Below, piece after piece: positions 4,381 to 21,531 of a DNA stretch of 64,000 nt; position 1 is the first letter of the stretch; every line of letters begins with the position of its first letter. Location: assembly GCF_003991155.1 (NCBI RefSeq), contig NZ_CP031293.1; one strand, given 5' to 3'. The DNA comes from Escherichia coli. Its GTDB lineage: Bacteria > Pseudomonadota > Gammaproteobacteria > Enterobacterales > Enterobacteriaceae. The translations under genes were made by a program, and so were the position numbers. Under the pieces are notes generated by a model. It was not told the origin of the DNA, did not search any database, and was given only the letters and a program-made list of their open reading frames with translations.

Positions 4381-5019
4381 ATGCCCGGGCGCTTTGAACT
4401 AAAACCAACCCTGGAGAAAGTCTGGCACGCGCCGGACAATTTTCGCTTCATGGACCCGCTGCCGCCGATGCATCGTCGGGGGATCATTATTGCCGCCATT
4501 GTATTGGTAGTCGGATTTCTGCTTCCATCTGATGATACGCCCAACGCGCCAGTGGTGACGCGTGAAGCGCAGTTAGATATTCAGTCGCAATCACAACCAC
4601 CGACAGAAGAACAGCTGCGGGCGCAATTAGTCACGCCACAAAATGATCCTGATCAGGTGGCTCCGGTCGCTCCAGAACCAATACAGGAAGGCCAGCCAGA
4701 AGAGCAGCCGCAAACCACCCATACGCAACCATTCCAGCCAGATAGCGGAATTGATAATCAATGGCGCTCCTATCGTGTCGAACCCGGTAAAACGATGGCG
4801 CAGCTGTTCCGCGACCACGGACTGCCCGCTACCGATGTCTATGCCATGGCGCAGGTAGAAGGCGCGGGTAAGCCGCTGAGTAATTTGCAAAACGGGCAGA
4901 TGGTGAAAATCCGCCAGAACGCCAGCGGCGTGGTGACGGGCTTAACCATTGATACGGGGAATAATCAACAGGTCCTGTTTACCCGCCAGCCGGATGGCAG
5001 TTTTATTCGTGCGCGGTAG
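4381..5019 (+). CDS. ytfB: Cell division protein YtfB (OapA/LysM-like C-terminal domain)
   Basis: ORF 4345..5019; start set at [23 protein letters not shown] to give 212 aa; Pro/Gln-rich linker then C-terminal OapA-like domain. Confidence 0.8.
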
Positions 5020-5650
5020 ATGAAGGGTCAACCAAAAGCCAGCTAAGGATTGTCTCTTTGATGACCTTACGTCTGGCTTCCAGTGCCTGGGGTGAAACCA
5101 TACTGATGTGATAAACCAGGCCAAGCGTATGCTGGTTGATCAAATAATATCCCCCAAGCGCAGCAATATTAATATTCACCTGCAATGGGTCGATATCTGG
5201 CTTAAAAATATTGTGTTTCTTCCCTTCATCCAATAAGGATTCCATTAACTGCAAGTGCGCATGGTTAATTTCTAAAAGACGCTGTGACTTTGCATAATGC
5301 ACACCCTTACTTTGATTTTCACTATGCACAATTTTTAAAAACCAGGGATTAGAAATATAATAATCCCATGTAAAATCGATTATTTTCTCAATGGCTTTCT
5401 GTGGCGGAAGATCTGAGAAATCAAGGGCCTTTTCTTTTTGTCGAATATCGTTCCAGGTATATTCCAGTACTTCGATAAATAAATTTTCTTTATTACCAAA
5501 GTGGTGATAAACCGTCTGTTTACTGCACCCTGCTGCCTTGACAATATTATCGACTCTGGCCCCTTCGTAACCATATTCGGCAAATTCATTAACCGCGCAT
5601 AACAGCAGCTTTTCTTTCAGGCTCTGTACGTTGCTGGTATCAAGATACAT
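5003..5650 (-). CDS. TetR/AcrR-family transcriptional regulator, divergent from the catabolic operon
   Basis: N-terminal HTH signature ([28 protein letters not shown]) typical of TetR; start set at [11 protein letters not shown] (215 aa); AT-rich coding sequence; 3' end overlaps ytfB by 17 bp (convergent). Possibly the intact counterpart of the K-12 ytfA fragment (from memory, unverified). Confidence 0.8.
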
Positions 5651-5862
5651 AACGCTTCCCCACGACCTCTTCGTGGTGACTATCATAACCTGATTTGATT
5701 TCAGCTTCAGAAAAAAGGGCAAAAACTTGTACTTTCATCAGGTTATCAAATGTCCTGTGATCGCCATCGCATATCAACCAACTAGATGGTTGATCTTTTT
5801 ATCATCCAGTCGCAAGCTAATCATCACCAAGGAAACAAAATTCAAAAAAAGAGAGCTATTGT

Positions 5863-6654
5863 ATGAAATCCACTCGTCCTGTTGCCGTGATTACCGGAGC
5901 CGCTCGTGGTATTGGAAAGGGCTGTGCGCTGGAGCTTGCGCGTGGCGGATTTAATCTGCTGATTAATGATCGTCCGGATGCGGATAGCGTAGAAAAATTA
6001 CATGCCACACAACAAGAATGTCTGGCGGAAGGCGTGGAAGTGATTTGCTTCCCTGCTGATGTGGGCGATCTCTCCCTTCATGAAGAGATGCTCGACGCGG
6101 CGCAAAACCAGTGGGGACGTCTGGACTGTCTACTCAACAACGCAGGCATTTCAGTGAAAAAACGCGGTGACCTCCTCGACCTCGAACCAGACAGCTTCGA
6201 TCAAAACATTGCCATTAACACCCGCGCGCCGTTCTTCCTTGCTCAGGCATTCAGTAAGCGCTTACTGGCACAGCCGAAACCGGAAGCAGAACTGCCGCAC
6301 CGCTCGATTATTTTTGTCAGTTCCATCAACGCCATCATGCTGGCGATGAATCGCGGCGAATATACCATTGCCAAAACTGCCGTCTCCGCCGCAGCTCGTC
6401 TGTTTGCCGCTCGCCTTTGCAATGAACAAATTGGCGTTTATGAAGTGCGCCCTGGTCTCATCAAAACTGATATGACTATTCCGGCAACGGCTTATTACGA
6501 CGAACTGATTGCCAAAGGTCTGGTGCCGTGGGGACGTTGGGGTTATCCGGCTGATATTGCTTCCACTGTCCGCGCGATGGCGGAAGGTAAACTGATTTAC
6601 ACCTGCGGTCAGGCGGTTGCCATCGACGGCGGCTTAAGTATGCCGCGCTTCTGA
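5863..6654 (+). CDS. Short-chain dehydrogenase/reductase (SDR) family oxidoreductase
   Basis: 263-aa ORF with N-terminal TGAARGIGKG Rossmann motif and SDR-like catalytic region; first gene of the operon. Confidence 0.85.
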   Translation: MKSTRPVAVITGAARGIGKGCALELARGGFNLLINDRPDADSVEKLHATQQECLAEGVEVICFPADVGDLSLHEEMLDAAQNQWGRLDCLLNNAGISVKKRGDLLDLEPDSFDQNIAINTRAPFFLAQAFSKRLLAQPKPEAELPHRSIIFVSSINAIMLAMNRGEYTIAKTAVSAAARLFAARLCNEQIGVYEVRPGLIKTDMTIPATAYYDELIAKGLVPWGRWGYPADIASTVRAMAEGKLIYTCGQAVAIDGGLSMPRF

Positions 6655-6663
6655 GGCTGAATC

Positions 6664-7506
6664 ATGAGAGATCTGTTACAACGCCCGGATTTATTCAGTA
6701 TCAATACCGCAACACTGGGCTATAAAACGCCGCTACCCGCCATTATTGATGCCTGCGCCGCACGCGGTATTGGCGCAATTGCCCCCTGGCGCAGGGAGTT
6801 GCAGGGTGAAGATCTCCAGCAAATCGCCCGCCAGCTTGCTGCCAGTAACATAAACGTTTCCGGTTTGTGCCGTAGCACCTACTACACCGCACCGACGCTG
6901 GCGGAGCGCAAACTGGCGATTGACGATAACCGCCGGGCGCTGGACGACGCCGCTGTACTGAACGCTGCCTGTTATATGCAGGTGGTTGGCGGTCTGCCAA
7001 TGGGAACAAAAGATCTGTACGAAGCGCGGGAACAGGTGAAACAAGGGATTCGCCAGTTGCTGCCACATTCGAAAGATGTCGGTGTGCCAATTGCACTGGA
7101 GCCACTGCACCCGATGACTGCTGCCGATCGTTCTTGTCTGTGCACGTTACGTCAGGCGCTGGACTGGTGTGATGAACTCGATCCCGATGGCGAATTTGGC
7201 CTCGGCGTGGCGGTAGATGTCTACCATGTCTGGTGGGATCCGGATCTCGCCAGTCAGATCCTGCGTGCCGGAAAACGCATCCTCGCGTTTCATGTTTCCG
7301 ACTGGTTAGTGCCGACCACCGATCTGGTCAATGACCGTGGAATGCCGGGAGATGGTGTCATCAATATTCCGTCAATTCGTCGGCTGGTTGAAAACGCCGG
7401 ATTTAATGGCGCTATTGAACTGGAAATATTCTCACCGTATTGGTGGCAGCAAGATATTGACAGCACACTGGATATTAGCGTCGATCGCATCGCGCATTAT
7501 TGCTAA
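6664..7506 (+). CDS. Sugar-phosphate isomerase/epimerase-like TIM-barrel protein (xylose isomerase-like fold)
   Basis: 280-aa ORF; resembles the AP-endonuclease-2/xylose-isomerase-like TIM-barrel family (hydroxypyruvate isomerase, dehydroshikimate dehydratase, IolE-like). Family call from memory. Confidence 0.7.
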   Translation: MRDLLQRPDLFSINTATLGYKTPLPAIIDACAARGIGAIAPWRRELQGEDLQQIARQLAASNINVSGLCRSTYYTAPTLAERKLAIDDNRRALDDAAVLNAACYMQVVGGLPMGTKDLYEAREQVKQGIRQLLPHSKDVGVPIALEPLHPMTAADRSCLCTLRQALDWCDELDPDGEFGLGVAVDVYHVWWDPDLASQILRAGKRILAFHVSDWLVPTTDLVNDRGMPGDGVINIPSIRRLVENAGFNGAIELEIFSPYWWQQDIDSTLDISVDRIAHYC

Positions 7507-7515
7507 GGAATAATC

Positions 7516-8292
7516 ATGAGTGACCAACCCGTTCTGTTCAGCAGAGCGGCGGCTTCTTGCCGCCTGACATTGAACCGTGAAGATAAATGTCATGCTATTA
7601 ATGAAGAAATGATCGAATCTCTCGACCATTATTTAAATGAAATTGAAAATGACACGGCATTACGCTTAGTCGAATTAACGGCAACCGGCGATAAATTCTT
7701 TTGTGCGGGCGGCGATATTAAATCGTGGTCGGCCTATTCGCCATTAGATATGGGCAGAAAATGGATTAAACGCGGTAACGAGGTTTTTAATCGCCTGCGC
7801 AATTTACCCCAATTAACGGTTGCAAATCTCAACGGTCATACCATTGGCGGTGGGATTGAACTCGCCTTGTGCTGCGATATTCGTATTGCCCGCCCCGGCG
7901 CGAAATTCTCTAACCCGGAAGTGATGCTCGGCATGGTGCCTGGCTGGATGGGCATTGAACGCGTGCTTAATCAGGTTGGCCCGGTGGTCGGTCGCCAGAT
8001 GCTGATGCTGGGTAAACGCCTGACGGCGCAGGAAGCTCAGGCGGCGAATTTAATTGATGAAGTGGTAGAAAAAGAACAGGTGGAAAGCTGGATGGCGAAT
8101 CAGTTAGCGCAGCTGGAAAAATGCGGTCCGGTGGCGCTCGCACATATCAAGCAACTGATTCTGGCACTGGAAAATAAACATGCTGATTACCCGCACCAGT
8201 TACTGGCTGGATTAATGTCCGCCACTCAGGATTGCCAGCAGGCGACGCGCGCCTTTGCCGAAAAAAGTAGCGTGAGCTTCCAAAATCAATAA
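7516..8292 (+). CDS. Enoyl-CoA hydratase/isomerase (crotonase) family protein
   Basis: 258-aa ORF with crotonase-fold hallmarks (FCAGGDIK, GHTIGGGIELALCCDIRIA oxyanion-hole region). Confidence 0.85.
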   Translation: MSDQPVLFSRAAASCRLTLNREDKCHAINEEMIESLDHYLNEIENDTALRLVELTATGDKFFCAGGDIKSWSAYSPLDMGRKWIKRGNEVFNRLRNLPQLTVANLNGHTIGGGIELALCCDIRIARPGAKFSNPEVMLGMVPGWMGIERVLNQVGPVVGRQMLMLGKRLTAQEAQAANLIDEVVEKEQVESWMANQLAQLEKCGPVALAHIKQLILALENKHADYPHQLLAGLMSATQDCQQATRAFAEKSSVSFQNQ

Positions 8293-8301
8293 GGAAATTG
8301 T

Positions 8302-9843
8302 ATGCGTAAGATAACAACCACCGAGACACTGGCGGCGCAAATTCAGGACGGCGCAACCATTGCCATTAGCGGTAATGGCGGCGGAATGGTGGAAGCGGAC
8401 CATATTCTGGCTGCTATTGAAGCGCGTTTCCTGCAAACCGGACACCCGCGCGATCTGACATTAATCCACTCGCTGGGCATTGGCGATCGCGACTGCAAAG
8501 GCACTAACCGCTTCGCTCATGCAGATATGCTCAAACGCATCATTGCCGGGCACTTTACCTGGTCGCCCAAAATGCAGGCGCTGGTAAAAAATAACACGAT
8601 TGAAGCCTACTGCTTTCCTGGTGGCGTGATTCAGGCACTGCTACGGGAGATCGGCGCCGGACGTCCGGGGCTTTTTACCCACGTTGGGCTGGGATCGTTT
8701 GTTGATCCACGCAATGGCGGCGGTAAGTCGAATGAATGCACGACCGACGACCTGGTAGAACTGATTGAAATCGATGGTGAAACCAAACTTCGTTATCGCC
8801 CTTTCAAAGTGGATTACGCGATTTTGCGTGGCACTTATGCCGATCCACGAGGCAACGTCAGCCTCGAAGAAGAGGCGATTGATATGGATAGCTATTCGAT
8901 GGCGCTGGCAGCACACAACAGCGGCGGCAAAGTGTTCGTACAGGTACGCGATGTGCTGGAAGCTGGCGCGATTGAACCACGCCGGGTCAAATTACCGGGC
9001 ATTCTGGTTGATGGCATCGTTGAACACCGCGAACAACCGCAAACCTATCTTGGCGGTTACGACCTGACCATTAGCGGTCAACATCGCCGTCTGAGTTCTA
9101 ACGACGCTATTGAACTGGTTAGTCATCCAGTACGCCGCCTGATTGCCCGTCGGGCAGCACGCGAACTGGTGGCTGGCGCTTCAACCAACTTTGGCTTTGG
9201 TATTCCTGGCGGTATTCCAGGCGTAGCGCTGCGCGAAGGCGTTCCTTACCAAAGTTTATGGCTGAGCGTCGAGCAAGGTGTACATAACGGCATGATGCTG
9301 GATGATGCGTTCTTCGGCTGCGCCCGCAACGCCGACGCCATTATTCCATCACTCGATCAATTTGAGTTCTACAGTGGCGGAGGGATCGATATCACCTTCC
9401 TCGGCATGGGAGAGATGGATCAGTACGGTAACGTCAACGTCTCCCATCTCAATGGCAATCTGATTGGCCCCGGCGGATTTCTCGAAATTGCGCAAAACGC
9501 CCGTAAAGTGGTGTTCTGCGGCACGTTCGACGCCAAAGGTAGCAAGATCGATGTAACGCCAGATGGCTTGCATATCGCCCAGTCAGGTCAAATCCCTAAA
9601 CTGGTTACCCAGGTGGAAAAAATCACTTTTAGCGCCGCCTACGCACAGCAAAGCGGTCAGGAAGTGTTGTATATCACTGAACGTGCAGTATTCCAGTTAA
9701 CGGCAGAAGGCGTTGAATTAATTGAAATCGCACCGGGTGTGGAGATTGAGCGCGACATTCTGCCGTATATGGCTTTCCGTCCAATTATCAAGCACCCACG
9801 CCTGATGGAAAGTAGCCTGTTTACGCCGATGGAGGATGCATGA
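8302..9843 (+). CDS. Family-I CoA-transferase (acyl-CoA:acetate/3-ketoacid CoA-transferase, YdiF/Pct-like, fused subunits)
   Basis: 513-aa ORF; shares conserved blocks with E. coli YdiF and propionate CoA-transferase (FVDPR, YITERAVF, LIEIAPGV) as recalled from memory. Confidence 0.8.
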   Translation: MRKITTTETLAAQIQDGATIAISGNGGGMVEADHILAAIEARFLQTGHPRDLTLIHSLGIGDRDCKGTNRFAHADMLKRIIAGHFTWSPKMQALVKNNTIEAYCFPGGVIQALLREIGAGRPGLFTHVGLGSFVDPRNGGGKSNECTTDDLVELIEIDGETKLRYRPFKVDYAILRGTYADPRGNVSLEEEAIDMDSYSMALAAHNSGGKVFVQVRDVLEAGAIEPRRVKLPGILVDGIVEHREQPQTYLGGYDLTISGQHRRLSSNDAIELVSHPVRRLIARRAARELVAGASTNFGFGIPGGIPGVALREGVPYQSLWLSVEQGVHNGMMLDDAFFGCARNADAIIPSLDQFEFYSGGGIDITFLGMGEMDQYGNVNVSHLNGNLIGPGGFLEIAQNARKVVFCGTFDAKGSKIDVTPDGLHIAQSGQIPKLVTQVEKITFSAAYAQQSGQEVLYITERAVFQLTAEGVELIEIAPGVEIERDILPYMAFRPIIKHPRLMESSLFTPMEDA

Positions 9844-11921
9844 GCCAGCTTGATGACACCCTCCTTGATGCGCTGACACACGTCACTTTCCCAAAGGGTT
9901 TTGTGTCAGCAGAGCCAGCGTCAATTGTCACGGTTGAAGATGTCGATTACCCGATCTGGCAAGTTGATGCGCTAGTCGTTGGTAGCGGCGCAGCAGGATT
10001 ACGTGCGGCAGTTGAACTTAAACGCCGCCAGCAAAATGTGCTGATCGCCACCGCCGGGTTATATATGGGGACATCGGCATGTTCTGGCTCTGATAAACAG
10101 ACGCTGTTTACCGCCGCTACCGCGGGCAACGGCGATAACTTCGCCAAACTGGCGGAAGCACTGGCGAGCGGTGGGGCGATGGATCATGACACCGCTTATG
10201 TCGAAGCGGTAGGTTCTCTGCACACTCTTGGCGGGTTGCAATATCTTGGTCTGGAATTACCGGAAGATCGCTATGGCGCGATTCTTCGTTATCAAACCGA
10301 CCATGACGAAGCCGGGCGTGCAACCTCGTGTGGGCCGCGTACCTCAAGGTTAATGGTGAAAGTGCTGTTGGAAGAAGTACAGCGCCTCGCCATTCCAGTG
10401 TTGACCAGTGCAACAGTGATTAAACTGCTGCATCAGCGTGACGAAAACGGCGAAGACCGTGTGGCGGGGGCAATCCTCGCGACCGGTCATCGCGCCCTTA
10501 ACCCATGGGGGCTGGCAATTGTGACTGCGCCCAATGTGGTACTGGCAACAGGAGGGCCTGGCGAGCTTTATCGCGACAGTGTGTACCCACACAAATGTTT
10601 TGGCTCGCTGGGGCTGGCGCTGGAGGAAGGCCTGACACTAACTAATCTGACCGAAAGCCAGTTTGGTATAGGCACGCCGCGCAGCACGTTTCCGTGGAAT
10701 TTGTCCGGCACCTATGTGCAGGTGATCCCATATATCTATTCCGTGGATGCTGAGGGTAACGAGTATAACTTCCTCGCGGATTACTATCGCACCACCCAGG
10801 AGCTGGCTTCAAACATCTTCCGTAAAGGCTATCAGTGGCCGTTCCACGCCACGCGGGTAATGGATTTTGGCTCCAGCTTGTTAGATATGGCGGTGGCGCA
10901 AGAGCAGCAATCAGGGCGTCAGGTATTTATGGATTTCAATCGTAATCCTGTAGCGGTGCCTGGTGATTTGCCCTTCTCATTAGATCGACTGGACGACGAC
11001 GTTCGCGCGTATCTGGAAAATAACGACGCTCTGGCACCATCGCCCATCGAACGACTGCAACGAATGAATCCGCTGTCTATCTCGCTGTATAAGATGCACG
11101 GTTACGATCTCACCACGCAGCCATTGCAGTTTGCCATGAATAATCAGCACATGAATGGCGGCATTGAAGTCGATATCTGGGGACAAACATCTCTGCCCGG
11201 TTGTTTTGCAGTGGGGGAAGTTGCTGGCACACACGGCGTCACCCGACCTGGCGGCGCGGCGTTGAATGCCGGGCAGGTTTTTGCTGTTCGTCTGGCGCGC
11301 TTTATTGGTTGCACGCAAAAGCGGAATATTGATGGAGATATTGCACAGCTGGCAGCTCCGGCACTGGCTTCTATAAGAGAGATCATTACTCAGGCGCACG
11401 ATAACGGGACCGGGATGCCGTTGTCGATTGTGAGAGAAAAAATTCAGGCACGAATGTCTGACTATGCGGGATTTATTTGCCATGCCGATAAAGTTCGACG
11501 TGCCACTCGTGATGCCCTGCTATTGAGTGAATTTGTCCAACAGCATGGATTGGCAATCAAACATGTGGGCGAAGTTGCCGAGCTGTTTATGTGGCGGCAT
11601 ATGGCACTGACTTCTGCCGCCGTATTAACGCAATTGACGCATTATATTGACGCAGGTGGTGGTAGCCGGGGAGCACGTATTATTCTCGACAGTGATGGAA
11701 ATTCTATTCCGCAAACACGAAATGGTTTTTGTGATGCCTGGCGCTTTCGTTCAGAGCGTACTGAGGATAAAAAAGATAAACTACTTATTCATTATTGCAA
11801 CGGTATCTTTCACGTCAGAGAAACACCTGTTCGTGAGTTTCCTATTATCCGAGGTATTTGGTTTGAAAAAAACTGGCCTGGTTTTCTTAATGGGACAATT
11901 TACCAGCCACAGGATGAATGA
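9840..11921 (+). CDS. FAD-dependent oxidoreductase (fumarate reductase/succinate dehydrogenase flavoprotein-like superfamily), 693 aa
   Basis: Dinucleotide-binding motif VVGSGAAGLRAA near the N-terminus and a second glycine-rich FAD motif (AVGEVAGTHGVTRPGGAALNAG); ATGA overlap with upstream and downstream genes; the last ~90 codons are encoded by AT-rich DNA. Confidence 0.75.
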   Translation: MSQLDDTLLDALTHVTFPKGFVSAEPASIVTVEDVDYPIWQVDALVVGSGAAGLRAAVELKRRQQNVLIATAGLYMGTSACSGSDKQTLFTAATAGNGDNFAKLAEALASGGAMDHDTAYVEAVGSLHTLGGLQYLGLELPEDRYGAILRYQTDHDEAGRATSCGPRTSRLMVKVLLEEVQRLAIPVLTSATVIKLLHQRDENGEDRVAGAILATGHRALNPWGLAIVTAPNVVLATGGPGELYRDSVYPHKCFGSLGLALEEGLTLTNLTESQFGIGTPRSTFPWNLSGTYVQVIPYIYSVDAEGNEYNFLADYYRTTQELASNIFRKGYQWPFHATRVMDFGSSLLDMAVAQEQQSGRQVFMDFNRNPVAVPGDLPFSLDRLDDDVRAYLENNDALAPSPIERLQRMNPLSISLYKMHGYDLTTQPLQFAMNNQHMNGGIEVDIWGQTSLPGCFAVGEVAGTHGVTRPGGAALNAGQVFAVRLARFIGCTQKRNIDGDIAQLAAPALASIREIITQAHDNGTGMPLSIVREKIQARMSDYAGFICHADKVRRATRDALLLSEFVQQHGLAIKHVGEVAELFMWRHMALTSAAVLTQLTHYIDAGGGSRGARIILDSDGNSIPQTRNGFCDAWRFRSERTEDKKDKLLIHYCNGIFHVRETPVREFPIIRGIWFEKNWPGFLNGTIYQPQDE

Positions 11922-12418
11922 TATTGCAAAGGTTAATCACTATGCGAAATATAATTAGATCTATTAATGCTCTACTTGCAGCATTGAACATTACCATTTT
12001 GGCGATCATCGTGGCATGTGTGACGTGGCAGGTGGCTGCACGATTTATATTTACTAGTCCCAGTATTTTTACAGATGAACTCAGCCGTTTGCTCTTTATT
12101 TGTCTTGGACTTTTTGGTGGGGCATACACCGCAGGGCAAAACCGGCATCTGGCGATTGACCTGATACCTATGATGCTGAAAGGAAAAGCCCGACGTCATT
12201 TATTTTTGTGTATTCAGATTATCGTTATTATCTTCGCTACCATCATTATGGTATATGGTGGTGGGCTATTAACGATGGATACATTCGATTCAGGTCAGAC
12301 CTCGCCCGCTTTAGGCTGGCAAATGGGATATATCTATATGAGCATCCCGATGAGTGGTGTACTTATTATTATATACACCATAGATATGGTTTTAACCGAA
12401 CTTAAACAACCACTCTAA
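11918..12418 (+). CDS. TRAP transporter small permease subunit (DctQ-like)
   Basis: 166-aa hydrophobic ORF with about 4 predicted TM segments directly upstream of a DctM-like gene; an alternative start at the internal MRNIIRS is possible. Confidence 0.75.
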   Translation: MILQRLITMRNIIRSINALLAALNITILAIIVACVTWQVAARFIFTSPSIFTDELSRLLFICLGLFGGAYTAGQNRHLAIDLIPMMLKGKARRHLFLCIQIIVIIFATIIMVYGGGLLTMDTFDSGQTSPALGWQMGYIYMSIPMSGVLIIIYTIDMVLTELKQPL

Positions 12419-12460
12419 AGATAACAAACAACAACCAACCATAGTAGGAATGGAGAAATT

Positions 12461-13762
12461 ATGGATTACTGGTTACCGATTATTGTGTTATTTGGTGCCT
12501 TCTTTTTTATGTTGGCATTAGGTGTACCTATTGTTTATGCCATTGGTTTATCGACACTGGCATCAATTTCCACACAACTCGATTTCAACTCAGCATTGAG
12601 TGTGGTTTCCCAAAAGTTAGCCTCCGGGTTAGATAGTTTTACGTTGTTGGCAATCCCATTTTTTATCTTGTCTGGCAACATTATGAATCATGGAGGAATA
12701 GCGCGACGATTAATCAACTTTGCCCGTATTCTCGGCGGTCGTCTGCCAGGCTCACTTGCCCACTGTAATATTCTCGCCAATATGCTGTTCGGGGCAATTT
12801 CTGGTTCAGCCGTGGCTTCGGCGGCTGCGATGGGCGGCGTCATGCATCCGCAACAGGTTAAAGAGGGCTACGACCCGGCATTCAGTACTGCGGTTAACGT
12901 TGCCTCTGCCCCGACGGGTTTGCTTATTCCACCAAGTAATACGTTAATCGTCTATTCACTGGTCAGTGGTGGTACTTCTATTGCCGCACTGTTTCTGGCG
13001 GGTTATGTTCCGGGAATTTTGCTGGGTCTGGCACTGATGGTAATAGCCGGTATTATCGCGGTACGTCGCGGTTATCCAAAGCCAGAACGCCCGACTTTAC
13101 GCCAGGCTGGCGTTGCGATATGGATGGCTATCCCCAGTATTTTCCTGATTATTTTAATTATGGGGGGTGTATTAAGTGGTATTTTTACCCCGACAGAGGC
13201 CTCCGCAATTGCAGTAATTTATACCCTTTTCCTTGCACTGGTTCTTTATCGTGAAATCTCAGTTAAAGATTTACCTAAAATATTTCTGGAATCCGTTATT
13301 ACCACTGCAATTGTCTTGTTATTAATTGGTTCTTCGATGGGAATGTCATGGGCGATGTCAAACGCTGACGTTCCCTTCCTGATTCTCGATTTGCTTAACA
13401 CTATTTCTGACAACCCAATAATAATCCTGCTTATTATCAATATTATCCTGTTGATTATCGGCACTTTTATGGATATGACACCGGCGGTACTGATTTTTAC
13501 GCCGATATTTTTACCGGTTGTCACCGAACTGGGCATGGACCCGATTCACTTTGGTATTGTCATGGTACTGAACATGTGTATCGGTATTTGTACTCCGCCT
13601 GTAGGCAGTGTGTTATTTGTCGGTTGTAGTGTATCTAAATTACCGATTAATAAAATTATCAAACCTATGCTGCCATTTTATGCCGTGATGGTATTGGTGC
13701 TGGCAATGGTGACCTATATTCCGCAAATCAGTATGGCATTGCCAAGAGCACTGGGTTACTGA
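12461..13762 (+). CDS. TRAP transporter large permease subunit (DctM-like)
   Basis: 433-aa polytopic membrane protein with DctM-family features; AT-rich. Confidence 0.88.
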   Translation: MDYWLPIIVLFGAFFFMLALGVPIVYAIGLSTLASISTQLDFNSALSVVSQKLASGLDSFTLLAIPFFILSGNIMNHGGIARRLINFARILGGRLPGSLAHCNILANMLFGAISGSAVASAAAMGGVMHPQQVKEGYDPAFSTAVNVASAPTGLLIPPSNTLIVYSLVSGGTSIAALFLAGYVPGILLGLALMVIAGIIAVRRGYPKPERPTLRQAGVAIWMAIPSIFLIILIMGGVLSGIFTPTEASAIAVIYTLFLALVLYREISVKDLPKIFLESVITTAIVLLLIGSSMGMSWAMSNADVPFLILDLLNTISDNPIIILLIINIILLIIGTFMDMTPAVLIFTPIFLPVVTELGMDPIHFGIVMVLNMCIGICTPPVGSVLFVGCSVSKLPINKIIKPMLPFYAVMVLVLAMVTYIPQISMALPRALGY

Positions 13763-13814
13763 TGCGCATTCACTGGCGGCACCTGCCGCCATATTTATTA
13801 GAAAAGGAACATCT

Positions 13815-14786
13815 ATGAAAATAAAAGTATCCGCTGGCATTATCGGTGCTGTTCTTATGTTATCCGCAAGCCAGTCCTGGGCAGTGACATTAAAACTGAG
13901 TCATAATCAGGATAAGTCTCATCCTGTTCATAAAGCGATGGAGTTCTTTGCGAAAAAGAGCAAAGAGTACTCTAACGGTGATATTACTATTCGTATTTAT
14001 CCAAATGGAACATTGGGTACTCAACGAGAAACAATGGAGCTGATTCGTTCTGGCGCTATTCCACTGGTAAAAACCAACGCGGCAGAAATGGAAGCATTTG
14101 AAAATTCCTATAAATTATTTAGCCTGCCTTATTTGTTCCGCGATCGTGATCATTATTATCAGGTCATGCAGGGCGATATCGGGAGAAAAATCCTCGACTC
14201 AACGAAAAGCAAAGGTTATTTCGGGCTGACTTTTTATGATGGAGGCGCCCGCAGTTTCTACGGCAATAAACCAGTACTGAAACCAGACGATCTCAAAGGC
14301 ATGAAAGTCCGTGTCCAGCCAAGTCCTGGCGCAGTTGAAATGATCAAAGTCATGGGCGGTAACCCGACGCCACTGGATTACGGCGAGTTGTATACAGCCT
14401 TACAGCAGGGTGTGGTCGATATGGCAGAAAACAGCGTGATGGCGCTGACCACCATGCGTCACGGTGAAGTGGCAAAATCCTTCAGCCTTGACGAACACAC
14501 TATGGTTCCCGATGTGGTTCTGATGAGCAATGCTGCGTTTGATAAACTTAGCCCGGAAAATCAGGCAGTTATATTAAAAGCAGCTAAAGAATCAATGAGC
14601 TACATGAAAGACTTGTGGAGCGAGGAAGAGAAACAAGAATTTGCAAAACTGGATAAAATGGGCGTGAAAGTCTACCAGGTAGATAAAGCTCCGTTTATCG
14701 AGAAAGTACAGCCAATGTACGCAAACTTCGCTAAGGACAACCCAGCCCTTGCCCCAATGCTGGCTGATATTCAGGCAGCTAAGTAA
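13815..14786 (+). CDS. TRAP transporter periplasmic solute-binding protein (DctP/YiaO-like)
   Basis: 323-aa ORF with signal peptide (MKIKVSAGIIGAVLMLSASQSWA) and DctP-family sequence; last gene of the operon. Confidence 0.85.
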   Translation: MKIKVSAGIIGAVLMLSASQSWAVTLKLSHNQDKSHPVHKAMEFFAKKSKEYSNGDITIRIYPNGTLGTQRETMELIRSGAIPLVKTNAAEMEAFENSYKLFSLPYLFRDRDHYYQVMQGDIGRKILDSTKSKGYFGLTFYDGGARSFYGNKPVLKPDDLKGMKVRVQPSPGAVEMIKVMGGNPTPLDYGELYTALQQGVVDMAENSVMALTTMRHGEVAKSFSLDEHTMVPDVVLMSNAAFDKLSPENQAVILKAAKESMSYMKDLWSEEEKQEFAKLDKMGVKVYQVDKAPFIEKVQPMYANFAKDNPALAPMLADIQAAK

Positions 14787-14842
14787 TTATCTTCGTAGGG
14801 CTGCTTATTGTGGCCCTTATCGATATCTGCAAGTGCTCGCTA

Positions 14843-14877
14843 CAAAAGCAAAACGCCGACCAATGGTCGGCGTTTTT
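14843..14877. terminator. Bidirectional rho-independent terminator between the TRAP operon (+) and rplI (-)
   Basis: GC hairpin cgccgacc-aat-ggtcggcg flanked by an A-run upstream and a T-run downstream, read directly from the sequence. Confidence 0.6.
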
Positions 14878-14897
14878 ACGTCTCGTTGAATAACGAA

Positions 14898-15359
<462 letters not shown>

Positions 15360-15388
15360 TCAAAGTCGTATTAATGGACCGTGACCGA

Positions 15389-15935
<547 letters not shown>

Positions 15936-15941
15936 CAGAAA

Positions 15942-16355
<414 letters not shown>

Positions 16356-16663
16356 TTATTCAGCCTCCTGTCTGGGTCAGCCGAATCCCGGGGAGGCAAG
16401 GAACGTGTTAAAGGTCGGCTGAAAAATGACGCGTTATAGTACTGACATACCCCGCTAAACTCAAGGGCAGAGCCGAAATAAATCTCCCCTTTCGCAAATA
16501 ACCTCTAAACCGCTGATTTGGAGTTCATCACACTTCATCATGGTGTTTTTTTGAACAACTGCATCAGAAATGGTCACCATCAACTTCTTTATCATTGATT
16601 AAAATTAAATCAGAAGATCATCACAGAGGAGAGCACACAAAGTCAGCCGTCGAGGAGGTATCT

Positions 16664-16939
16664 ATGTTCAGTCGTGTTTTAGCCCTTCTGGCTGTGCTTT
16701 TGCTAAGTGCAAATACATGGGCAGCCATTGAAATTAATAACCACCAGGCCAGAAATATGGACGATGTGCAAAGCTTAGGCGTGATTTATATCAACCATAA
16801 CTTCGCCACTGAAAGTGAAGCACGTCAGGCATTAAATGAAGAGACAGATGCGCAGGGCGCAACGTACTACCACGTGATTCTGATGCGGGAACCGGGAAGT
16901 AACGGCAATATGCACGCCAGCGCGGATATTTATCGCTAG
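16664..16939 (+). CDS. yjfY: YdgH/BhsA/McbA-like (DUF1471) periplasmic protein YjfY
   Basis: ORF 16595..16939; start set at MFSRVLALLAVLLLSANTWA signal peptide (91 aa); followed by a strong terminator. Confidence 0.8.
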   Translation: MFSRVLALLAVLLLSANTWAAIEINNHQARNMDDVQSLGVIYINHNFATESEARQALNEETDAQGATYYHVILMREPGSNGNMHASADIYR

Positions 16940-16980
16940 CACCAGGTATAACCAACGAAACATTGCCATAGTTTGCTTTG

Positions 16981-17004
16981 CCCCCTTCGCAGGGGGCTTT
17001 TTTT
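16981..17004 (+). terminator. Rho-independent terminator downstream of yjfY
   Basis: cccccttcgcaggggg hairpin followed by a T7 run. Confidence 0.65.
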
Positions 17005-17067
17005 GAAAAACGGCTGCGGAATTAGACCAGTTATCTCCCGAAGAAGGAAATTTCCGCAGCGCGTGTT

Positions 17068-17754
17068 TTACTTCTGCCCGTAATAAGCGTTGGGACCATG
17101 CTTACGCATGAAGTGTTTATTCATAAGATAGCTGTCGATGTGATTCAGTTGCGGGTTTATACTGCGCGCAATCCACGCCATTTTCGCCACTTCTTCCATC
17201 ACCACCGCGTTATGCACCGCATCGTGGGCATCTTTCCCCCAGGCAAACGGCCCGTGCTGATACACCACAATTCCCGGCGTATGCAGCGGTTCAGCGCCAC
17301 CCAGCGTTTCGATAATCACTTTGCCGGTGTTCAGTTCATACTCGCCCTGCACCTCTTCTTCGCTTAACCCACGCGTACACGGGATGTCGCCAAAGAAGTA
17401 GTCGGCGTGCGTGGTGCCTAACGCCGGGATCGCCAGCCCCGCCTGCGCCCATGCGGTGGCATGAGTGGAGTGGGTATGGACAATGCCGCCAAGCGACGGG
17501 TAACGACGGTAGAGTTCGAGATGCGTCGCAGTATCGGAAGACGGGCGATACGCCCCTTCCACCACCTTGCCGCTCATATCAACCACCACCATATCGTCTG
17601 CTTTCATGGTTTCGTAGGCGACGCCGCTGGGCTTGATCACCACCAGCCCGCGTTCGCGGTCAATGGCGCTGACGTTGCCCCAGGTAAAGGTCACCAGCCC
17701 GTAGCGCGGCAGATCCATGTTGGCTTCAAACACCTGCTGTTTTAGCTTTTGCAT
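17068..17754 (-). CDS. ulaF: L-ribulose-5-phosphate 4-epimerase UlaF
   Basis: Class II aldolase/epimerase sequence; start at [21 protein letters not shown] (228 aa); last gene of the ulaABCDEF operon. Confidence 0.9.
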
Positions 17755-18608
17755 TATGCCGCCTCCACCATGCCTGCTTTGGCCATGCGCGCTTTCACCC
17801 AATCACGCGCTTTCGCCACTTCTGCCGCCGGGTCTTCCGCCGTTTCGCTCCACATCTCAATCAGGTACGGCCCGCAATAGCCACTCTGCTTGAGCGTTTC
17901 AAAGCAACGTTCGAAATCCACTACGCCTTCGCCAAACGGCACATTTTTGAAGACGCCTGGTTTGGTGTCTTTCACATGCACCGCGACGATATGCCCAATT
18001 CCGGCCTGCAATTCCATCTGCACGTCGTTGTCCCACGCCGACAGGTTGCCGATATCCGGGTAGAGCTGGAACCACGGGTTGTTGAGATAGTGCGCGTAGC
18101 CCAGCGCCTTGCTGATGGAGTTCATCAACGGATAATCCATGATCTCCATCGCCAGCGTCACCTGCGCACGGCTTGCCATCTCAACGCTCTCTTTCAGGCC
18201 GTCACGGAAACGACGACGCGTTTCGTTATTGGCTTCCTGATAATAAACGTCATAGCCCGCCAGCTGGATCACGCGAATACCAACGTCCTGGGCGAACTGG
18301 ATAGCTTTATGCATAATCTCCAGCCCCTGCGCCCGTACCGCGTCATCTTCGCTGCCCAGCGGGAAACGACGATGAGCAGAAAGGCACATGGAGGGCACGC
18401 GCACGCCGGTTTCAACAATCGCATTCACCAGCGCCAGACGCTGCTCGCGGCTCCAGTCGAGGCGCGACAGGCGATCGTCCGTTTCATCTACCGACATCTC
18501 GACAAAATCGAAGCCTAACGTTTTTGCCAGTTGCAGCCGTTCCAGCCAGCACTCCCCGGCGGGGAGCGCTTTTTCATAGATGCCAAGCGGGATTTGTTTG
18601 GACAACAT
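17754..18608 (-). CDS. ulaE: L-ribulose-5-phosphate 3-epimerase UlaE
   Basis: 284-aa [45 protein letters not shown]. Confidence 0.9.
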
Positions 18609-18617
18609 ATCCGCTCC

Positions 18618-19268
18618 TTAACCCCACAGTTCGGCGATGGAACGTTTGAACTGACGTGCGGCTTCCACCGGAGAAGCGGCATCACGGATACTACGGCCCG
18701 CGATAAAGACGTGAATCGGAATGCCTTTGAACAGCGGCAGATCTTCCAGCGCCAGGCCACCAGTGACGGTCACTTTGAAGCCCATATCGGAAAGACGTTT
18801 GATCGCGGTAATGTCCGCTTCGCCCCACGCTACGCCTGCGGCCTGTGCGTCACGGCTGCGGTGATAAACCACCTGCTGAATGCCTGCGTCGCGCCACTGC
18901 TGCGCCTGTTCCCAGGTCCAGTAACCGGTCAGTTCGATCTGCACGTCGCCGTTAAACTCTTTTGCCACGTCCAGCGCACCTTTGGCGGTGTTGATATCCG
19001 CACAGCAAATCACGGTCACCCAGTCAGCGTTGGCTTCGAAGCACATACGAGAAAGGATTTTGCCCGCATCGGCAATTTTGGCGTCTGCCAGTACGATTTT
19101 GTGCGGGTAAAGCGCTTTCAGGTCACGAACCGCACGCACGCCTTCGCCCACGCACAGAATGGTGCCCACTTCAATAATGTCGACTTCTTCGGCAATCAGG
19201 CGAGTGGTTTCGTAGGCGCTATCCATAGTCTGGTTGTCCAGCGCGACTTGCAACATCGGTAATGACAT
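18618..19268 (-). CDS. ulaD: 3-keto-L-gulonate-6-phosphate decarboxylase UlaD
   Basis: ORF track 268 aa; conserved start at [23 protein letters not shown] gives 216 aa. Confidence 0.9.
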
Positions 19269-19281
19269 CTTCAATTCCTTC

Positions 19282-19746
19282 TTAAGCTGCCGCGTTGGTG
19301 CGGTCAATGAGATCCAGTACTTCCTGCTCGGTACGGCAGGCACGTAAACGGTCGAAATTCTCTTCATCTTCAAACAGGTTGACGATCTGCATGATGCCCA
19401 CTTCCTGGTGGGTGTTGGCATCAACCGCCGCCATAGTGATGAGGATATCCACCGGGTCGTTATCTTCGTGGTTGAACTCCAGCGGCTTTTTCAGCGTCAC
19501 CAGCGCAAAACCGGTTTTCTTAACACCCTCTTCCGGGCGACCGTGCGGCATTGCCAGGCCTGGTGCGAGCACAAAGTACGGACCGTGCTGTTCAACCGCA
19601 TCCAGAATCGCCTGGTAGTAACGCGGCTCGACAACATCCGCCGCCACCAGCAGGTCAACGCCGATTTTCACTGCGTCCTGCCATGTCTCAGCTTCAGCCT
19701 GCAGACGGATAGATTTATTCTCCGCCAGCGAATCACGTAATTTCAT
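19282..19746 (-). CDS. ulaC: PTS ascorbate-specific EIIA component UlaC
   Basis: 154-aa [36 protein letters not shown]. Confidence 0.9.
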
Positions 19747-19755
19747 AGCGCGCCC

Positions 19756-20061
19756 TTACTTCACGTCCTGCGGGAAATGCGCTTTGATCACTTCCAGCAG
19801 TTTCGGGCCAAAGTCAGCAGGAGAGAGCATGTTGCGCACGCCAACCACATATTTGTTGCCGGTCACGGTGATTTCGCCCGCAATGTGCGTAGAAGCGATG
19901 ATGATATCCGCGCCGCTCAACTCGCTTTTGTATTCGCCAACCGCGCAGCTGTTTACCGTGTGGTCAATGTTCGACTGGGTTAAAAACTGGTCCACTTTCA
20001 TCTTCATGATCATGGAACTGCCTTGTCCGTTGCCACACACAGCCAGAATACGTACGGTCAT
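19756..20061 (-). CDS. ulaB: PTS ascorbate-specific EIIB component UlaB
   Basis: ORF 103 aa; start set at [16 protein letters not shown] (101 aa) with the active-site Cys. Confidence 0.9.
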
Positions 20062-20076
20062 AATCAAAACTCCTTA

Positions 20077-21531
<1,455 letters not shown>

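Follow-up and report, generated by a model that had tools for sequence, protein, structure and literature searches.

Probable exchange of transporter cassettes, with a junction inside an oxidoreductase gene, at the ytfB-rplI slot of Escherichia coli

Why should the base composition of a bacterial operon change within a reading frame, rather than where one gene ends and the next begins? The question is raised by an accessory operon in a 64,000-nucleotide stretch of the Escherichia coli chromosome (contig NZ_CP031293.1; hereafter the window). According to the RefSeq annotation of the identical sequence, the operon occupies the interval between ytfB and rplI, where a divergent TetR-family regulator gene is followed by seven co-oriented functions, from an oxidoreductase of the short-chain dehydrogenase/reductase (SDR) family through to a tripartite ATP-independent periplasmic (TRAP) transporter. 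An initial annotation, made by eye, described the enzyme genes as GC-rich, and the regulator gene, the last ~90 codons of the gene for a 693-residue FAD oxidoreductase and all three transporter genes as AT-rich. It proposed that the transporter, together with a C-terminal extension of the oxidoreductase, came from an AT-rich donor and was fused onto a pre-existing enzyme cassette. The analysis favors a different account, to which a probability of about 80% is attached: the operon is a three-block mosaic at an accessory slot common to Escherichia, Salmonella and Klebsiella, and its 3' cassettes are exchanged by homologous recombination.

The compositional mosaic seen by eye is real. The enzyme genes (SDR, TIM-barrel protein, enoyl-CoA hydratase, CoA transferase and codons 1-613 of the FAD oxidoreductase) have a GC content of 0.50-0.55 and a GC content at third codon positions (GC3) of 0.50-0.56, at the low end for the host, as the neighboring core genes average a GC3 of 0.60. 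The corresponding values are 0.40 and 0.42 for the TetR gene (5003-5650, minus strand) and 0.39 and 0.27-0.28 for the last 80 codons of the oxidoreductase gene (codons 614-693, 11679-11921; hereafter the tail), while dctQ, dctM and dctP have GC contents of 0.41, 0.44 and 0.45 and GC3 values of 0.40, 0.44 and 0.46. A single GC3 change-point fitted to all plus-strand genes gave a log-likelihood ratio (LLR) of 20.2 (500 shuffles: mean 2.8, maximum 10.6); a change-point fitted to the oxidoreductase gene alone gave an LLR of 12.1, against 9.0 for the 99.9th percentile of the null. The switch thus falls inside the 693-residue open reading frame (ORF) and not at a gene boundary, as had been claimed. 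Among 251 eighty-codon control windows, taken from 27 long ORFs elsewhere in the 64 kb, none has a GC3 of 0.30 or less (mean 0.606, SD 0.074, minimum 0.35). The fall occurs in two steps, from ~0.55 to 0.44 near 11280-11500 (around codon 490) and then to 0.27 at ~11650-11680, and a locally calibrated codon-adaptation index ranks the segments in the same order as GC3. The statement that all three TRAP genes are AT-rich holds for each gene overall, but dctM contains a stretch at ~12600-13050 with a GC content of 0.51-0.53, so that the block is not uniform. GC contents at first and second codon positions (GC1, GC2) are likewise reduced in the TetR gene (GC2 0.29), the tail and dctQ/dctM. The shift extends to synonymous sites (GC3 0.27 in the tail versus 0.53 in the remainder of the gene), and hence it does not reflect amino-acid bias alone.

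The slot holds alternative contents in different strains. The TRAP form, with this tail, is present in 1443-1447 of 5426 complete E. coli genomes (27%), and E. coli C is among the strains that have it. A second form, found in 1670 of them (31%) and exemplified by E2348/69, APEC O1 and E. coli B, shares the regulator and the enzyme core and continues with a 690-residue oxidoreductase and a transporter of the major facilitator superfamily (MFS). The remaining complete genomes carry neither cassette, and among those sampled a K-12-type relic prevails, in which the last 403 nt of the TetR gene (ytfA) are kept together with yjfZ, often with an IS609 insertion. All of these, the TRAP form, the MFS form with or without hipBA, and the yjfZ form, sit between ytfB/TetR and rplI. 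The suspicion that the oxidoreductase 3' end and the transporter have a history different from that of the enzyme core is thereby borne out, since the same core bears another tail and another transporter in the 1670 MFS-form genomes.

The point at which the two forms part can be placed closely. Megablast homology between the TRAP form and MFS-form genomes stops at query position 6678, or 11680 in the window. Over their full length the two oxidoreductases remain colinear, with ~97% identity over residues 1-613 and ~48-50% over residues 614-688, and the jump in protein divergence comes at codon 614 (11679), directly past a GGGSRGAR loop; at the DNA level the forms are near-identical up to the codons of that loop and about 55% identical beyond them. 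When two TRAP-form alleles were compared site by site with two MFS-form alleles, the final position not specific to form was 11570, and the first TRAP-versus-MFS-specific site was 11606. The form-specific sites between 11606 and 11678, which span the end of a helix and the GGGSRGAR loop, are all synonymous, and such sites become dense from 11681. At the other edge of the cassette a terminator-like hairpin (14850-14876) lies downstream of rplI. On these alignments the exchangeable unit is about 11600-14840.

Is the tail an addition to the enzyme? Among the matches listed, which are mainly distant homologues, proteins of about 680-700 residues from Brenneria, Pseudescherichia, Rhizobiales, Rhodobacterales, Verrucomicrobiota, Planctomycetota and other groups can be aligned as far as residue ~688, with matches reaching query residue about 683-693; those from Rhizobiales, Rhodobacterales and Planctomycetota are 37-59% identical. 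None of the homologues found lacks residues 614-693. In ~43 homologue loci compared base by base, the full-length proteins are all ~640-700 residues long with a tail of 70-95 residues, one locus being cut by a contig end. The Klebsiella and Salmonella loci came from a separate search for contigs encoding the protein. The tail motifs WRFR, FEKNWP and G.IY are common to the homologues, and E676 and W679 are invariant in the alignment. The protein matches PF00890 (FAD_binding_2) at 98.3 bits (cut-off 20.4, E = 7.7e-28). An AlphaFold2 model (pLDDT 87, pTM 0.91) comprises a helical domain (471-604), a Gly-rich loop (605-613) and a compact alpha/beta subdomain (614-693, pLDDT about 90), which places the protein-level break at a predicted domain boundary; the top Foldseek matches are SDHA and FrdA (probability 1.00, TM about 0.65-0.8). 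The tail is therefore not an extension that has been fused on, given that the 690-residue MFS-form protein is colinear, that every homologue found has the tail and that it is predicted to fold as a subdomain. The event is best read as homologous replacement, not fusion.

Comparison of strains shows how the two parts of the operon are associated. The core of EC19, a TRAP strain, differs by 0-1% from that of strain B, an MFS strain, while two MFS strains are 3-7% apart, and in its left half the core of the window has as nearest relative E2348/69, again an MFS strain. In all TRAP-versus-MFS comparisons, divergence leaps to 41-47% in the tail. Among TRAP-form genomes, differences amount to 0.2-1.2% in the tail and the TRAP genes and to 2-6% in the core, and for the window the change between these two regimes coincides with the TRAP/MFS junction. 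Thus the enzyme core tracks strain background and not transporter type, from which it was concluded that the cassette has been exchanged by recombination. Crossovers have occurred at other points too, as in a rare allele (five genomes; intact in strain 2013C-4282) in which an MFS-like tail is joined to the TRAP genes at ~11908. In one assembly of this allele (L088, 11956-12926) the DctP frame is split into ORFs of 75 and 257 residues. TRAP and MFS alleles of Klebsiella diverge from ~residue 490. The oxidoreductases of E. albertii and E. marmotae bear an MFS-type tail, which, together with the low diversity of the TRAP cassette, is compatible with a later arrival of that cassette in E. coli.

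The proposed mechanism can be put as follows. Block 1 would consist of the TetR regulator gene and the promoter region; block 2 would be the enzyme core (SDR, TIM-barrel protein, hydratase, CoA transferase, and FAD oxidoreductase as far as the helical domain), which is near host GC and follows strain ancestry; and block 3 would be an exchangeable 3' cassette made up of the last ~80 oxidoreductase codons and an uptake transporter, TRAP here and MFS in other strains. Strains would swap cassettes via homologous recombination, wherein the right-hand crossover falls within the shared sequence adjoining rplI and the left-hand crossover in the last oxidoreductase stretch common to all alleles, up to the GGGSRGAR loop. 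Because the left crossover would lie inside the oxidoreductase gene, composition and divergence would change abruptly within the ORF at ~11600-11680, and because each cassette would supply its own version of the subdomain, the protein would stay colinear, with nothing fused on. The TRAP cassette, we infer, entered E. coli from another enterobacterial lineage with a homologous operon.

Several points weigh against this account. Whether TRAP replaced MFS or MFS replaced TRAP is judged from the tails of two other Escherichia species and from the low TRAP diversity, which leaves the order tentative; the base-by-base comparison covered only a handful of alleles; and neither the DctP search nor the tail-only search identified a donor lineage. 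Two ancient haplotypes, gene-converted only where they are still similar, could form the same edge without a single crossover, which would be a variant of the mechanism and not a rival to it. In the 3' module, polarized third-position changes number 65 from GC to AT and 69 from AT to GC, with an implied equilibrium GC3 of 0.43 against 0.42 observed (counts biased by the distant, GC-rich Klebsiella outgroup), so that with this caveat the substitution pattern of the cassette looks stationary and fits poorly with a simple recent import of low-GC DNA. Finally, cassette exchange does not explain why the segments are AT-rich.

The AT-richness therefore has to be considered apart from the exchange. 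The MFS-form tail is equally AT-rich (GC 0.37, GC3 0.28-0.29), and the MFS gene has a GC3 of 0.48. Salmonella, in the MFS form, and Klebsiella, in both the TRAP and the MFS form, have the same slot and architecture, and across the three genera the enzyme core tracks the host (GC3 0.53, 0.60 and 0.68), while the TetR gene stays at 0.42-0.48, the tail at 0.26-0.50 and the transporters lower as well. The TetR protein is 87-89% identical between genera, and its gene is low in GC in all alleles of all three. In distant homologues of the same architecture, GC3 of the tail minus that of the gene body is only -0.12 to +0.16. Beyond the enterobacterial slot the only other full TRAP operon found is that of a 63.5%-GC organism, where it is compositionally uniform (GC3 0.73-0.83); the TRAP-linked architecture is thus old and not intrinsically AT-rich. 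In that organism (L090; Logan DRR121775, 217 kb contig, 10001-20972) the whole operon consists of genes for TetR, MaoC, SDR, TIM-barrel protein, hydratase, CoA transferase, a 686-residue oxidoreductase, DctQ and DctM, with dctP divergently transcribed, and the TRAP proteins are 63-85% identical to those of the window, the enzymes only 41-64%.

The competing account that survives best, possible but doubtful, is compositional decay in situ. The AT-rich segments would be native and would drift toward an AT-biased equilibrium wherever the force that maintains GC3, selection or GC-biased gene conversion tied to homologous recombination, is weak; constraint on them may be relaxed, or deep divergence may keep the cassette alleles from recombining with one another. 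Such decay would agree with the persistence of the low-GC pattern in three genera while the enzyme cores tracked host GC3, with the uniformity of the same operon in a high-GC organism, with the balance of third-position changes given above, and with the correlation of GC3 with conservation inside the FAD oxidoreductase gene (rho 0.59, p = 0.003). A link between recombination and GC content has been reported in bacteria (PMC4450053) and is discussed for E. coli (PMC2617782). On the other hand, between E. coli and Klebsiella the TetR and TRAP proteins equal the enzymes in conservation (87-90% identity) and yet their genes are AT-richer, so relaxed constraint is no general explanation; the correlation drops to rho 0.17 (p = 0.08) over the whole operon and 0.05 within the TRAP genes; the TetR gene, 96-99% identical among most E. 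coli alleles, should recombine freely; and the polarization of changes carries the outgroup bias already noted. A gradient of GC3 driven by conservation across the whole operon was accordingly rejected and kept only as a partial explanation inside the oxidoreductase gene. Decay in situ addresses the AT-richness alone, and the cassette exchange remains.

Far more tentative, and on present evidence improbable, is a combined reading in which block 3 would act as a specificity cassette, the oxidoreductase subdomain co-evolving with the uptake system so that a swap retunes the substrate of the CoA pathway, and in which the cassettes and the regulator would share a stable, module-specific low-GC equilibrium older than the split of Escherichia, Salmonella and Klebsiella. 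If this were so, the low GC would mark a local shadow of recombination or GC-biased gene conversion, or selection related to silencing, rather than foreign origin, and the locus would offer a clean natural experiment on the factors that determine GC3 in enterobacteria.

Slightly less probable still is a functional cause, in which selection keeps AT-rich signals such as a promoter within the tail for the transporter genes, or sites at which H-NS nucleates and so silences the operon. AT-rich DNA is indeed present on both sides of the operon in every allele and genus, and all rplI-proximal occupants of the slot are AT-rich, including yjfZ of K-12 (GC 0.42, GC3 0.37). Against this, promoter-like sites are not enriched (14 versus 14.1 expected), and with tail DNA ~55% identical between alleles no conserved motif is evident. 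An internal promoter in the tail was rejected as a candidate, as the consensus scan found no site on the plus strand between 11500 and 11950.

The initial proposal taken literally, that the enzyme cassette gained TRAP genes and a novel oxidoreductase extension in one event from an AT-rich donor and so came to encode a longer, fused protein, is very improbable. It does explain a sharp intragenic break in composition and divergence and the low diversity of the TRAP cassette in E. coli, and the nearest DctP proteins outside Escherichia and Klebsiella are mostly from low-GC Gammaproteobacteria (Vibrio, Photobacterium, Providencia, Morganella), though they are just 53-61% identical. It is opposed by the colinearity of the 690-residue MFS-form protein and the presence of the tail in all homologues found, by the modeled fold of the tail as a subdomain of an SdhA/FrdA-like enzyme, and by the equally AT-rich MFS tail. 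A tail-only search of 5.8 billion proteins, limited in sensitivity as it returned only 24 mostly fragmentary proteins, gave nothing above 65% identity to the tail outside E. coli, and the DctP relative in Providencia sits in an unrelated, hexuronate-type locus. AT-richness thus fails as the mark of a donor: the MFS tail matches it, Salmonella and Klebsiella show the same pattern, and no AT-rich donor appeared among the sequences searched. The amelioration model, in which the AT-rich TRAP cassette would be a recently imported low-GC island, appears to lack the donor that it calls for. What survives of the initial interpretation is the separate history of tail and transporter and a junction within the ORF; the fused extension and the donor signature do not. 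Least probable of all, an artefact by which hydrophobic or Lys/Asn/Ile-rich proteins depress GC without any difference in history would suit the lowered GC1 and GC2 but was ruled out by the strong third-position shift, by the core membrane-protein genes ytfF, cycA and ulaA of the same window (GC3 0.65-0.68 at equal hydrophobicity, versus 0.44 for dctM), and by the small tail-minus-body differences of distant homologues.

Table 1. Features of the ytfB-rplI slot in the window (coordinates refer to the full 64,000 nucleotides)
Feature	Coordinates	Strand	Basis and composition
ytfB, core gene, left flank of slot	4381..5019	+	RefSeq annotation; GC 0.56
TetR/AcrR-family regulator, full-length counterpart of the K-12 ytfA relic; AT-rich block 1	5003..5650	-	Pfam TetR_N and TetR_C_29
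TetR/operon divergent intergenic (promoter-operator) region, hypervariable	5651..5862		Allele comparison
SDR-family oxidoreductase (annotated 3-ketoacyl-ACP reductase), enzyme core	5863..6654	+	Pfam adh_short; NCBIfam PRK12745; GC3 0.52
Xylose-isomerase-like TIM-barrel protein, enzyme core	6664..7506	+	Pfam AP_endonuc_2; GC3 0.56
Enoyl-CoA hydratase/isomerase, enzyme core	7516..8292	+	Pfam ECH_1; GC3 0.52
Fused family-I CoA transferase, enzyme core	8302..9843	+	Pfam CoA_trans; NCBIfam FadX-like match under curated cut-off; GC3 0.55
FAD oxidoreductase residues 1-490, FAD-binding and capping domains	9840..11309	+	Pfam FAD_binding_2 at residues 43-475; GC3 about 0.55
FAD oxidoreductase residues 491-613, helical domain up to GGGSRGAR loop	11310..11678	+	GC3 about 0.44
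Interval holding the DNA-level left cassette edge	11571..11606	+	Site-by-site comparison
Invariant GGGSRGAR loop codons	11655-11678	+	End of the segment for residues 491-613
FAD oxidoreductase residues 614-693, C-terminal alpha/beta subdomain (tail)	11679..11921	+	GC 0.39
TRAP small permease DctQ	11942..12418	+	Pfam DctQ; PGAP start; GC3 0.40
TRAP large permease DctM	12461..13762	+	Pfam DctM; TIGR00786 above cut-off; GC3 0.44
TRAP periplasmic solute-binding protein DctP	13815..14786	+	Pfam DctP; NF037995/TIGR00787 above cut-off; GC3 0.46
Right cassette edge; homologous again to MFS-form and K-12-form chromosomes from 14837-14845 onward	14837..14876		blastn versus L002, L003 and L004
rplI, core gene, right flank of slot	14898..15347	-	Annotation

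The gene content (Table 1) suggests what the operon may do. From the enzyme set and the carboxylate-type transporter, it would provide a beta-oxidation-like route for an imported carboxylic acid, comprising CoA transfer, FAD-dependent desaturation, hydration and SDR oxidation. An NCBIfam scan of the operon gave no equivalog-level names besides the SDR model PRK12745, and a literature search on its function gave nothing specific; ytfA is merely listed as a variably present TetR-family gene (PMC6790063). In three RefSeq genomes the annotation of the 17-22 kb surrounding the locus shows neither an integrase nor a tRNA; no search for flanking direct repeats was made. Conservation differs along the oxidoreductase, with 88-90% identity between genera for residues 1-490 and 46-58% for the fast-evolving residues 491-613. 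The initial annotation took the start of dctQ as an ATG at 11918 that overlaps the oxidoreductase stop (ATGA), while the RefSeq (PGAP) start lies at 11942. A gap of 215 nt separates the two genes in Klebsiella, so that translational coupling is not conserved.

Further variation was evident within the slot. At its left end, E. coli alleles are 11-16% divergent in the bin 5581-5880, which covers the TetR/operon intergenic region, and only 1-5% in the adjoining genes. In STEC719, a TRAP-form strain, the ytfB and TetR alleles (L093, 59-1327) are 18-23% divergent from the others, the ytfB product being annotated only as LysM-like, so that polymorphism extends to the left flank of the slot. Within the core, a 150-nt patch at 9885-10034 (oxidoreductase residues ~15-65) is ~77% identical to most alleles and 94-96% identical to that of the L088 assembly, and probably represents a separate small recombination tract. 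K-12 retains, right after the ytfA relic, a 102-nt relic of the SDR 5' part at 79% identity (window 5952-6053; L004, 3408-3509), which implies that the K-12 state was derived by deletion from an operon-bearing ancestor. In O157:H7 and many other genomes the K-12-type TetR relic is split by an IS609-type element of the IS200/IS605 family, with tnpA and a gene for the RNA-guided endonuclease TnpB/InsQ. In E2348/69 the interval from the MFS gene to rplI contains a hipA/hipB toxin-antitoxin pair with a frameshift (L002, 16424-18184), which E. coli B lacks, a further indel polymorphism. A fourth E. coli allele (L089; Logan SRR11848740, 3616-13867) has a TetR only 79% identical (GC 0.36), an AT-rich CoA transferase gene (GC3 0.38; 83% amino-acid identity) and no enoyl-CoA hydratase gene; it encodes an MFS transporter of another lineage (76% identical to the common one), followed by a MaoC-like dehydratase and hipBA. 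The dehydratase looks like a functional replacement of the hydratase.

A composition anomaly noticed by eye has thus become a precisely mapped recombination junction. The uncharacterized catabolic operon, which occurs in about 58% of the complete E. coli genomes, pairs one shared enzyme core with different uptake systems, and the allelic form bears on the choice of strain for identifying its substrate. For annotation, the 693- and 690-residue oxidoreductases are to be treated as mosaic alleles and not as different genes; pangenome analyses would otherwise split the gene. The AT-rich blocks that stand beside a host-tracking core in three genera are also a small, clean counter-example to the equation of low GC with recent foreign origin.

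How does the locus compare with known systems? Its oxidoreductase resembles the SdhA/FrdA/NadB class in having FAD-binding, capping, helical and small C-terminal domains, but identity is 14-19% and all SdhA, FrdA and NadB equivalog scores are far under their cut-offs. As regards respiratory complex II or fumarate reductase, the operon has no genes for iron-sulfur or membrane-anchor subunits; its partners are CoA-pathway enzymes, which sets the protein apart as a separate, functionally uncharacterized subfamily. The transporter, like other TRAP systems (DctPQM; YiaMNO of E. coli), has all three components, matched by PF04290, PF06808 and PF03480 and encoded together in the canonical order Q-M-P. 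It is not the orthologue of YiaMNO, the equivalog scores being 290 against a cut-off of 800 for YiaN and 36 against 260 for YiaM.

For the slot as a whole the closest parallel lies in the integration hotspots of E. coli, which occur between fixed core genes, mostly without integrases, and whose contents are disseminated through homologous recombination in flanking sequence (Touchon et al. 2009, PMC2617782); the ytfB-rplI slot was not found named in the main text of that paper. As at those hotspots, alternative contents (TRAP, MFS with or without hipBA, yjfZ) occupy one position between the same core genes, the flanks are homologous, no integrase or tRNA is annotated and the cassette occurs on unrelated strain backgrounds. 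Here, however, the left flank for recombination is no core gene; it is provided by the conserved portion of an accessory enzyme gene. The junction consequently falls within a gene, and a protein subdomain comes with every cassette in a copy of its own. A second parallel is offered by the O-antigen (rfb) and capsule clusters of Enterobacteriaceae, which are diverged, low-GC allelic cassettes with conserved flanks that are exchanged by homologous recombination across species and genera. The ytfB-rplI cassettes share with them deep divergence, low GC, a position between conserved genes and occurrence in several genera, but belong to a catabolic operon, vary in a transporter and an enzyme subdomain instead of surface-antigen synthesis, and give no evidence of diversifying selection driven by host or phage. 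The rfb cluster is also mentioned in the hotspot study (PMC2617782). Together, these comparisons make the locus a further example of a known phenomenon, the exchange of cassettes at a hotspot, with the less common feature of a left junction placed at a domain boundary within an enzyme gene.

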